Shown piece after piece: positions 35,955 to 37,944 of a DNA stretch of 43,730 nt. The number at the start of each line of letters is the position of its first letter. Within the stretch, counting starts at the first letter, position 1. The stretch comes from a virus (lineage: Duplodnaviria; Heunggongvirae; Uroviricota; Caudoviricetes). Both the position numbers and the translations under genes were made by a program. Under the pieces are notes generated by a model. It saw nothing but the letters and a program-made list of their open reading frames with translations. It did not search any database and had not been told where the DNA came from. The stretch is taken from the IMG/VR virus record IMGVR_UViG_646311924_000020. One strand, written 5' to 3'.

Positions 35955-36000
35955 TCGCTTTTCAGCGACGTAGGACGAATGTCCGTTGTTACAAAGAGCG
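35955..36000 (-). promoter_or_regulatory. candidate nutR (boxA plus boxB)
   Basis: Minus strand just after cro: CGCUCUUUGUAACAACG (boxA-like), a small hairpin GGAC-AUUC-GUCC, then UCGC-UGAAAA-GCGA (GAAAA loop as in lambda boxB). Nearly the same arrangement recurs upstream of N. Confidence 0.5.
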
Positions 36001-36343: not shown

Positions 36344-36997
36344 ATGAAATGGTATGAACTGGCTAGATCCAGAATGAAAGAGCTCGGCATAACTCAAGAG
36401 AAGTTAGCCGAAGAGCTTGGTATGACGCAGGGTGGAATTGGTCACTGGTTGCGCGGATCTCGTCATCCATCTCTTGACGAGATTGGTGTGGTGTTTAAAT
36501 ACCTTGGTATTGATAACGTCTCATTCAACCACGACGGTACATTTTCACCTGTTGGCGAATACTCATCTGCCCCCGTTAAAAAACAATATGAGTACCCTGT
36601 TTTTTCTCATGTTCAGGCCGGTATGTTCTCGCCTGAGCTTAGAACCTTTACCAAAGGTGATGCGGAGAGATGGGTCAGCACAACCAAAAAAGCCAGTGAT
36701 TGTGCGTTTTGGCTTGAAGTTGAAGGTAATTCCATGACCGCGCCAACAGGATCCAAGCCAAGCTTTCCTGACGGGATGTTAATTCTCGTTGACCCTGAGC
36801 AGGCTGTTGAGCCAGGTGATTTCTGCATAGCCAGACTTGGTGGTGACGAGTTTACCTTCAAGAAACTGATCAGGGATAGCGGTCAGGTGTTCCTACAACC
36901 ACTAAACCCGCAATATCCAATGATTCCATGCAATGATAGCTGTTCCGTAGTAGGGAAAGTTATCGCCAGCCAGTGGCCTGAAGAGACATTTAGTTAA
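36344..36997 (+). CDS. cI: CI-type prophage repressor (N-terminal HTH, C-terminal S24 LexA-like domain)
   Basis: HTH segment ([23 protein letters not shown]) and S24 motifs (GNSMTAP...FKKL); start chosen at ATG 36344 (7 nt after AAGGG); ORF-track start 36296 is a TTG. Confidence 0.85.
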
Positions 36998-37029
36998 CAG
37001 CCTCACCACTCTAAAACACACAACAATAA

Positions 37030-37057
37030 CCCGACCTTAGCGTCGGGTTTTCTTTTT
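37030..37057 (+). terminator. intrinsic terminator after cI
   Basis: Hairpin CCCGAC-CTTAGC-GTCGGG followed by TTTTCTTTTT, 33 nt after the cI stop. Confidence 0.6.
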
Positions 37058-37123
37058 CCAAAATATAAACCCATTAAATACAAAGCGTTATAAAAAACTA
37101 AACCATATTTAGAACATTTTGTA

Positions 37124-37152
37124 TTGACTCAGTAAAGTACACATCGTACTAT
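37124..37152 (+). promoter_or_regulatory. candidate pL promoter (-35 TTGACT, 17 bp spacer, -10 TACTAT) with overlapping operator-like 15-mer
   Basis: Spacer and -10 contain AGTACACATCGTACT (37136-37150), an inverted-repeat-containing 15-mer near-identical to the one at pR. Confidence 0.5.
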
Positions 37153-37198
37153 TTAGCTATCAGCAGGAAGCTGGAAGCCAAACGGAACAGACTGGCAG

Positions 37199-37244
37199 GC
37201 TCTTTAAACAACGTCGAACACTCGACTACGTGGCTGAAAAGCCA
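37199..37244 (+). promoter_or_regulatory. candidate nutL (boxA plus boxB)
   Basis: GCTCTTTAAACAACG (boxA-like), small hairpin GTCGA-ACAC-TCGAC, then TGGC-TGAAAA-GCCA (GAAAA loop); located between pL and N. Confidence 0.5.
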
Positions 37245-37342
37245 GATCACCCAACCACATAAGCTGTGGGATGCAATGCCGAAGCAACCGTCTCAGGAGG
37301 GGCTTCGAGATTGCATCGCCAAAGTTTATTCGGGAGGAATCT

Positions 37343-37615
37343 ATGTCCAGAAAAACAGAATTTAAAGGAACCGCAGCTTCTCGCCGTAGAGCTCGTCGTG
37401 CAAATCTGCAAAGTCAGGAGGCGATCAGCTCCGACAAGCTACACAGGCCAACCCCTTCACGAGTGGTCTTGCAATGCAAGCGCAAACCAGCAATGAGAGC
37501 AGAAGTGATAACTCTGACAACGTTGACCAGAAAATATGAAGGTTCAACTTGTCTTCCGAACGTAGCCATTTACGCGGCAGGCTACCGGAAATCAAAACAA
37601 CTGACGGCGAGATGA
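37343..37615 (+). CDS. N: N-type antitermination protein (arginine-rich motif)
   Basis: 90 aa from ATG 37343 (GGGAGG RBS): MSRKTEFKGTAASRRRARRANLQSQEA...; first gene after pL and the nut-like site. Confidence 0.7.
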   Translation: MSRKTEFKGTAASRRRARRANLQSQEAISSDKLHRPTPSRVVLQCKRKPAMRAEVITLTTLTRKYEGSTCLPNVAIYAAGYRKSKQLTAR

Positions 37616-37743
37616 CTTGTGTTGGTCGCCAGAAAATGAAATTAGGCAGCAAACCACTTATTTGAGGTGAGATATGGAAGAAGAATTTGAAGAGTTCGAA
37701 GAGCATCCGCAGGATGTGATGGAACAATACCAGGACTATCCGT

Positions 37744-37944
37744 ATGACTACGACTACTGATAAAAATCAATGGTGTGGACAATTCAAGCGATGCAATGGA
37801 TGCAAGCTGCAATCGGAATGCATGGTTAAGCCTGAAGAAATGTTTCCTGTAATGGAAGATGGGAAATATGTCGATAAATGGGCAATACGAACGACGGCAA
37901 TGATTGCCAGAGAACTTGGTAAACTGAACAACAAGGCTGCCTGA
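37744..37944 (+). CDS. ral: Ral (restriction alleviation protein)
   Basis: 66 aa MTTTTDKNQWCGQFKRCNGCKLQSECMVKPEEMFPVMEDGKYVDKWAIRTTAMIARELGKLNNKAA, matches recalled lambda Ral. Confidence 0.85.
   Translation: MTTTTDKNQWCGQFKRCNGCKLQSECMVKPEEMFPVMEDGKYVDKWAIRTTAMIARELGKLNNKAA

Follow-up and report, generated by a model that had tools for sequence, protein, structure and literature searches.

A covarying RNA helix in the N leader of a lambdoid phage, a probable homologue of the RNase III-processed leader helix of lambda

The DNA analysed here, a stretch of 43,730 nucleotides (nt) from the IMG/VR virus record IMGVR_UViG_646311924_000020 (Caudoviricetes), which we refer to as the window, carries a long imperfect RNA helix in the leader of the gene N. 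N is the first regulator made by lambdoid phages, Shiga-toxin phages included. On the plus strand, the order of features is the same as in lambda: cI, a terminator, the pL promoter, boxA, boxB, the helix, the Shine-Dalgarno (SD) sequence and N, so the helix has the nutL boxB on its 5' side and the N SD on its 3' side. The leader begins with AUCAGCAGG at 37159, the same form as the start of the lambda pL transcript, and homology to the lambda start suggests A37159 as the pL +1. N and its leader share 93-96% identity with their counterparts in VT2-Sakai-type Shiga-toxin phages (98-100% for the N of such phages), N itself is 98-100% identical in 80 IMG/VR contigs, and the Pfam family PF25694 (N_peptide) is on record for N homologues. 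The features are as follows.

37259-37329, plus strand: full N-leader helix, 71 nt (folds, covariation in 27 leaders, RNAalifold, sole match of covariance model R1 in the window, 53.4 bits)
37259-37269 with 37319-37329, plus strand: lower stem, 11 positions with one mismatch, G37266.A37322
37318, plus strand: bulged G
37270-37277 with 37310-37317, plus strand: middle stem, 8 bp
37278-79 with 37308-09, plus strand: 2x2 internal loop
37280-37285 with 37302-37307, plus strand: upper stem, 6 bp, closing a 16-nt loop
37270-37317, plus strand: hairpin reported in a preliminary description of the window (arm sequence, folding)
37255-37269, plus strand: H0, a small competing hairpin, CCACA 37255-37259 with UGUGG 37265-37269, loop UAAGC (prefix folds, conservation)
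End at 36997, plus strand: cI-type repressor open reading frame (ORF), from the sequence
37028-37049, plus strand: terminator after the cI-type ORF
37124-37152, plus strand: pL, a sigma-70 promoter from a promoter scan (-35 TTGACT 37124-37129, 17-nt spacer, -10 TACTAT 37147-37152)
37199-37207, plus strand: nutL boxA GCUCUUUAA, from the sequence, kept in relatives
37213-37226, plus strand: dyad GUCGA-ACAC-UCGAC in the spacer that separates boxA from boxB (sequence, folds)
37231-37244, plus strand: nutL boxB UGGCU-GAAA-AGCCA with a conserved UACG on its 5' side (folds)
37332-37337, plus strand: N SD GGGAGG, 5 nt from the ATG and 2 nt past the helix base
37343-37615, plus strand: N gene, 90 amino acids (aa) from ATG 37343, arginine-rich motif SRRRARRAN
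35955-36000, minus strand: nutR, with boxA CGCTCTTTG and spacer dyad GGACATTCGTCC as counterparts of the nutL elements, then TACGT and boxB CGCTGAAAAGCG (as RNA, UACGU-CGCUGAAAAGCG), downstream of a cro-like gene

The preliminary description had placed an imperfect hairpin at 37268-37316, with a 17-nt loop and 27 nt before the N start. Its two 16-nt arms, GATGCAATGCCGAAGC and GCTTCGAGATTGCATC, are present, although they lie at 37270-37285 and 37302-37317, 1-2 nt away from the positions given there (37268-37283 and 37301-37316); the loop measures 16 nt (37286-37301), and the 3' arm is 25 nt from ATG 37343. The two mismatches between the arms were described correctly and form a central 2x2 mismatch, GC opposite AG, with the remainder complementary. 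Folded as RNA, the segment 37268-37316 reaches -22.1 kcal/mol against -12.25 +/- 2.46 in 200 dinucleotide shuffles (z = -4.0; none of the 200 as good), which confirms that the hairpin exists. However, it represents the inner two-thirds of a larger structure, whose conserved part, the probable site of cleavage, lies mostly outside or at the edge of the coordinates reported earlier. In context, the stem grows outward by 11 more positions, in which AUAAGCUGUGG pairs with CCAAAGUUUAU with one G.A mismatch and the bulged G37318, giving a 71-nt imperfect helix (37259-37329, -35.6 kcal/mol) of 24 standard pairs, one G.A mismatch, a 1-nt bulge and a 2x2 internal loop. The structure thus has the about two helical turns or more that mark a lambda-type N-leader RNase III helix. 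The 101 nt from 37245 to 37345 fold at -42.3 kcal/mol against -25.1 +/- 3.1 in shuffles (z = -5.5), and the fold of the 221-nt leader has z = -4.1. Because several of its pairs are G-U, the plus-strand RNA is more stable than its reverse complement, by 8 kcal/mol (-35.6 vs -27.7), and this strand asymmetry points to an RNA element on the plus strand.

Within the apical loop, a 4-bp tip drawn by the folding program was discarded, as G37301A breaks it in 68 of 79 close relatives. The same loop holds an SD-like AGGAGG (37295-37300), which varies in close relatives (GGAGGAG, GGAGUAG, GGGGGUGG) and is followed there by no conserved start codon.

These data raise the question of whether the pairing itself is maintained. 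In 80 IMG/VR loci and 58 full-length phage matches the helix is 95-100% identical, and it shows no double changes, only G-U-compatible ones. Among 79 near-identical copies, the changes that recur at stem positions leave a G-U pair in place (A37261G, 9 loci; C37285U, 8 loci). Elsewhere, recurrent changes affect the bulge (G37318A), the mismatch (A37322G), and the internal and apical loops, including the unsupported tip; changes that break a pair amount to two singletons. Since such relatives are too similar to test pairing, graded N homologues and N loci from one genome per bacterial species were collected. In relatives with the same arginine-rich motif in N, the sequence UACGUGGCUGAAAAGCCA, which occurs once in the window, is invariant and the downstream sequence is different, yet a long helix is again found there.

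The leader set, which comprised the graded N homologues, their contigs, the one-genome-per-species N loci and lambda, follows a common plan: boxB, a CCAAAG-like word, a 5' arm YUUYGG↓G (the arrow marks the junction discussed below), an apical domain, a 3' arm C-(A/G)-CC↓AAAG, and the N ATG. The apical domain varies from 7 to about 170 nt, the helix base is constant, and the CCAAAG/CCAAAA word begins 22-29 nt before the ATG in every leader (24 nt in the window). The lower half of the window helix can be aligned with the lambda N-leader helix base for base, including the single bulged purine and CCAAAG: the base reads GCUGUGG↓GAUGCAAU ... AUUGCAUC-G-CC↓AAAGU in the window and GCUUUGG↓GGUGUGUG ... 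CACACACC-A-CC↓AAAGC in lambda.

To assess covariation, we built an alignment (A2) in which the arms were taken at fixed offsets from two anchor words, the apical part was replaced by NNNNNN, and the rows were aligned with MAFFT; it contained 27 distinct rows without gaps. The tested model, a 19-bp helix with a 1-nt 3' bulge, comprises 513 cells, and 91.6% of these hold standard pairs; sliding the 3' partner by 1-3 columns lowers this share to 38-44%, and column-preserving shuffles give 71.5%. Changes on both sides, that is, compensatory ones, occur in 14 of the 19 pairs. Double-change cells number 102 against 34.5 +/- 5.0 in shuffles (0/500), and the covariation score is 0.543 against 0.181. 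The extent of the exchange is evident in the middle stem, which reads GGUGUGUG/CACACACC in lambda, GAUGCAAU/AUUGCAUC in the window, ACAGGCG/CGCCUGU in L093, GGAGUGGUG/CACCACUCC in L111 and GAUUGGAUG/CAUCCAAUC in L099. The two G-C pairs directly below the bulge are invariant (27/27), the G-C pair directly above it is kept in 25 of 27, and the bulged nucleotide is a purine in all 27 leaders, which cover different boxB and N specificities. Since the A2 anchors had been picked by eye, RNAalifold was also run on ten unspliced hairpins; it reproduced 18 pairs and the bulge, with compensatory changes in 10 of these pairs. These results show that pairing of the plus-strand RNA is under selection. Across N leaders with unrelated boxB/N specificities, compensatory change preserves a single helix, whose junction sequence is fixed and whose apical domains can be exchanged freely.

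The apical domains themselves are modular. One module, GUGAAKUGCAG ... CCNGAAGAUMAGCAYCNGG, occurs in a group among L090, L091, L094, L114, L120, L122 and L130; another, GGAGCUWAGG ... GACUGAGAAG ... UUGARAYAGGU, is found in P22, L093, L103 and L104; and two further types are represented by L096/L110 and L085/L108. The apical part in the window is short and was seen only in close relatives. The helix is lacking or replaced by a different structure in L101, L106 (upstream of N), L107 and L109, and it is therefore widespread, not universal.

One additional piece of evidence came from a covariance model, R1, built from the ten unspliced hairpins, with lambda, 933W, HK97 and HK620 left out of the training. 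In the 43.7-kb window, R1 finds a single site, 37259-37329 on the plus strand. It also matches about 20 unseen leaders, in every case directly upstream of N or of a small ORF that is inserted ahead of N, and at the expected place it matches lambda, 933W, HK97 (43.8 bits, 12 nt before N) and HK620 (82.4 bits), the plus strand always scoring higher. R1 misses P22 and the L093/L103 type (middle stem ACUGGCG/CGCCAGU), which were checked by eye only; the P22 helix reads GGUUUGG↓ACUGGCG ... CGCCAGU-A-CCAAAGCC. In L084 (909-992), L095 (752-868) and L097 (620-703), the helix lies about 200-280 nt upstream of N with a small extra ORF in the interval, so that the helix stands before whichever gene comes first in the operon, and this gene need not be N. 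Two weaker matches in L106, from Biostraticola tofi (2267-2381 and 2516-2614), are downstream of the N homologue and may represent a second prophage or an unrelated helix.

An Rfam cmscan of 36900-37800 at E <= 10 gave chance-level matches only, none of them on the plus strand over 37228-37330. The helix is not annotated in six reference records (AP005153, lambda, P22virB-3, 933W, HK97 and HK620), and within the searchable literature we found no study naming it in the 933W, HK97, HK620 or P22 records. That this lineage of phages has the helix, and how broadly and strongly it covaries, is thus recorded neither in those six annotations nor in Rfam; an element of this kind is already known from lambda and was, in this sense, to be expected, well supported as it is.

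How does this element relate to lambda? In both, the helix lies between the nutL boxB and the N SD, contains a single bulged purine, has CCAAAG 24-27 nt before the ATG, and is accompanied by a small competing hairpin just upstream. The two differ in several respects. The lambda helix is 129 nt long and that of the window 71 nt, with its short, private apical part; the 5' arm in the window is not GU-rich, and one G.A mismatch lies beside the predicted cut; the helix end is 2 nt from the SD, compared with about 8 nt in lambda; and the window boxB is of the GAAA tetraloop type with a dyad spacer, unlike that of lambda. The preliminary description had suggested that the hairpin may be an analogue of the structure that RNase III processes in the N leader of lambda. 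The layout, the alignment of bases, the covariation and the R1 matches bear this suggestion out and indicate homology rather than analogy.

The lambda N leader is a target of RNase III, according to the mention of Steege 1987 in PMC5371410; N expression in lambda is raised by RNase III, as Kameyama 1991 is quoted in PMC9032294 and PMC8708148; and N together with Nus factors at nutL represses N translation across the highly structured leader, as PMC5725501 relates from Wilson 1997 and 2002. The closest relatives of the window phage have Escherichia coli as host. E. coli has RNase III, and the lambda mechanism is taken as the best explanation on this ground. We estimate the probability at roughly 0.7 that the element is a homologue of the lambda N-leader helix and is processed by host RNase III, with both cleavage and the effect on N carried over from lambda. 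Steege et al. 1987 reportedly placed the lambda cuts at +88/89 and +197/198. Placed on the lambda sequence, these positions are G88↓G89 and C197↓A198, exactly at the invariant GG↓G ... CC↓AAAG junction. A 2-nt 3' stagger is typical of RNase III, and this pair of cuts has such a stagger. By alignment, the predicted cuts in the window are G37269↓G37270 on the 5' side (from G88↓G89) and C37320↓A37321 on the 3' side (from C197↓A198), both on the plus strand, and the N mRNA would then begin with AAAGUUUAUUCGGGAGGAAUCUAUG.

On the lambda model, as long as the leader is intact, N and Nus factors bound at nutL (boxA and boxB) would share one RNA with the N ribosome-binding site (RBS). The compact helix would keep the nutL complex and the RBS close together, and N would repress its own translation. 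Cleavage of both strands at the GG↓G ... CC↓AAAG junction would part nutL from the N message, leave a 22-nt leader with a free SD and relieve the repression. Whether early transcription and, indirectly, the late (toxin-linked) transcription go ahead depends on how much N there is; if the site works as in lambda, the supply of N would be tied to the RNase III activity of the host cell and to N autorepression. The predicted cut sites make this reading directly testable.

Several points weigh against this reading, or at least limit it. The A2 anchors were chosen by eye, and because many leaders share ancestry, the tally of compensatory cells exceeds that of independent events. The upper stem and loop (37278-37309) occur in close relatives only, and what is conserved is the lower 19 bp. 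The three central pairs beside the predicted cut never covary, and two of them are mismatched in 3-6 leaders, including the window with G37266.A37322. The predicted cuts depend on the reported lambda coordinates, and cleavage in this phage and its close relatives is something we infer from homology with lambda. Finally, SD-AUG accessibility (mean unpaired probability from -15 to +3, partition function) comes to 0.50 for the window precursor against 0.60 for its processed form, and averages 0.49 and 0.53, respectively, over the 27 leaders; pairs touching the SD are weak and non-conserved only. With accessibility about equal before and after the predicted cut, a simple mechanism in which the helix masks the SD is unsupported, and an RBS-masking RNase III switch of the adhE or lambda cIII type was rejected as the main mechanism for want of a consistent difference.

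Another question is whether the helix could serve mainly as a scaffold, with RNase III irrelevant or secondary. About 70 nt folded into a compact rod would bring N-Nus at nutL beside the N RBS: the helix base is 2 nt from the SD and the boxB end 14 nt from the 5' side of the helix, so nutL and the SD come to lie side by side on folding, and structure in the lambda leader, as PMC5725501 remarks, may compact the loop between nutL and the RBS. Apical domains of 7 to about 170 nt on a constant base are also what would be expected if only the junction matters. However, a scaffold leaves the invariant GG/CC pairs, the bulged purine and CCAAAG unexplained, and these point to a sequence-specific event at the junction. 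Scaffold and processing functions coexist in lambda, which makes this idea a complement more than an alternative; as the main function of the helix we consider it unlikely.

Less probable still is that the 5' arm is a boxC-type nut element and the helix serves assembly of the antitermination complex or RNA chaperoning, not control of N translation. The boxC consensus is the lambda GGUGUGUG, a GU-rich box shortly after boxB, and a GU-rich GGGGUGUGGUG does form the 5' arm after boxB in lambda and most leaders. Reviews list boxC among the parts of nut sites (PMC2724277, PMC10250234), and in rrn operons boxC belongs to the 5' strand of the leader-trailer helix that RNase III processes (PMC10250234, PMC8632103), although structure there outweighs boxC sequence (PMC10250234). 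The window arm, GGGAUGCAAU, is not GU-rich, yet its pairing is kept. A GU-rich box after boxB at both nutL and nutR, the mark of such an element, is not found in the window; nutR has neither this box nor such a helix after its boxB, yet it must support antitermination. Moreover, the element tracks the N start codon, at 22-29 nt, rather than boxB.

We regard as improbable, to a greater degree, a generic role as a 5' stabiliser or mRNA structure protecting against RNase E or exonucleases, or conservation merely as a joint for mosaic recombination. Leader segments are indeed swapped among phages, the first 58 nt being common to phages with different N; a fossil N C-terminus (see below) directly follows N; and the conserved CCAAAG and GGGGUG stretches could be recombination linkers. 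Linkers, however, do not predict compensatory changes in two arms (14/19 pairs), G-U pairs on the plus strand or a conserved bulge, and a hairpin with a stabilising role should sit at the transcript's 5' end rather than 100 nt into it. An intrinsic terminator or attenuator before N, or a protein-binding palindrome at the DNA level, may be suggested by the long inverted repeat and the GUUUAUU after the stem, but GUUUAUU is itself paired in the lower stem, transcription of N must pass through the hairpin, and the strand-asymmetric pairing (fold energy, R1 scores) speaks for RNA and against a DNA palindrome, which leaves this explanation with hardly any probability.

The terminator or attenuator reading and a coding reading were rejected. 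A terminator scan finds no terminator-like site on the plus strand at 37259-37335, where CGCCAAAG follows the hairpin reported earlier. A coding reading, with an ORF from ATG 37271 in frame with N, was dropped because the extra upstream codons are not kept; the L114 counterpart of this ATG runs into CGA TGA.

Just after boxB, the leader can form the small hairpin H0, in which the CCAAAG-like word upstream of the 5' arm pairs with the CUUUGG-type strand of that arm; its lambda equivalent is UCAAAGC/GCUUUGG. H0 and the base of the long helix use the same CUUUGG-type strand and are therefore mutually exclusive. H0 is the minimum free energy structure for all transcript prefixes ending before 37326; in prefix folding it forms first and gives way to the long helix once 37326-37329 have been transcribed (-39.2 to -43.3 kcal/mol). 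Of 26 N leaders, 24 have an H0-like hairpin; its cells are 89% paired, with a covariation score of 0.396 against 0.274 in shuffles (0/500), evidence that is moderate because the 5' strand was picked with a motif. Changes in the shared strand, CUUCGG, CUCUGG and CUGUGG (the last in the window), are compensated upstream in H0 by CCGAAG, CCGGAG and CCACA, and not in the downstream CCAAAG, where the long helix then has a mismatch. Compensation on the H0 side only suggests that H0 itself is under selection. Its 3' end coincides with the predicted 5'-side RNase III cut, so after cleavage the nutL fragment could refold into H0, a blunt 3'-terminal hairpin, releasing the N mRNA. That the N leader is a two-state RNA device with H0 as the post-cleavage switch and, taken with the rrn parallel (a Nus site, then the 5' strand of an RNase III helix), that the element could merit a curated RNA family of its own across lambdoid N leaders, is a tentative proposal that we hold to be possible but rather doubtful.

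The nut sites of the window provide further context. Since nutR has the same architecture as nutL, it confirms the nutL assignment. It carries boxA and boxB, but neither its sequence nor a search of the window with R1 reveals a long helix 3' of boxB; the helix is therefore an element of the N leader and not a general feature of nut sites. The 933W/H-19B nut architecture (boxA, dyad spacer, boxB) is that of the window, and we take the nutL spacer dyad to be of the H-19B/933W type, following the H-19B nut sites reported by Neely & Friedman 2000. For the H-19B nutR, two hairpins are mentioned in PMC3526286. The apical domains of 933W, HK97, HK620 and P22 are unrelated to that of the window and longer (about 100 nt in 933W), and the N proteins of these phages are 40-50% identical to the window N or less.

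Among other RNase III substrates, the rrn leader-trailer helix that flanks 16S rRNA likewise has a Nus site followed by a conserved 5' strand pairing with a distant 3' strand (PMC10250234, PMC8632103). There, however, the strands are 1.7 kb apart and a structural RNA is released, whereas in the N leader they are 20-170 nt apart and an mRNA would be released, so the likeness appears to be one of logic only. Lambda cIII, lambda sib/int and T7 R1.1 likewise have an imperfect helix of about two turns, interrupted by internal loops, in an untranslated region, and its cleavage or binding alters expression (PMC5371410), but they have no sequence relationship to the window helix. cIII acts via RBS remodelling and sib via 3' decay, and neither uncouples a nut site from an RBS.

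In several Shiga-toxin phage records (e.g., AP005153), N is annotated as a protein of 114 aa starting at ATG 37271 inside the hairpin (37271-37615). Divergent relatives and the protein clusters retain the 90-aa form, which starts at ATG 37343 with a strong SD before it, and the longer annotation is therefore probably wrong.

The locus is also mosaic. From its start to boxA (37159-37207), the pL transcript is 89-95% identical in HK620, CUS-3 and lambda-like phages whose boxB, helix and N are unrelated, which sets a mosaic boundary just after boxA; imm21-type records match the window to about 37226. Directly after the N stop, in another frame, 37612-37662 encodes MTCVGRQKMKLGSKPLI, which is identical at 11 of 17 positions (E 2e-5) to the C-terminal end of lambda N, ITCSGRQKIKGKSIPLI. 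This segment looks like a fossil C-terminus of a lambda/21-type N, left by the mosaic exchange that brought in the P22/933W-type C-terminus (…IYAAGYRKSKQLTAR).

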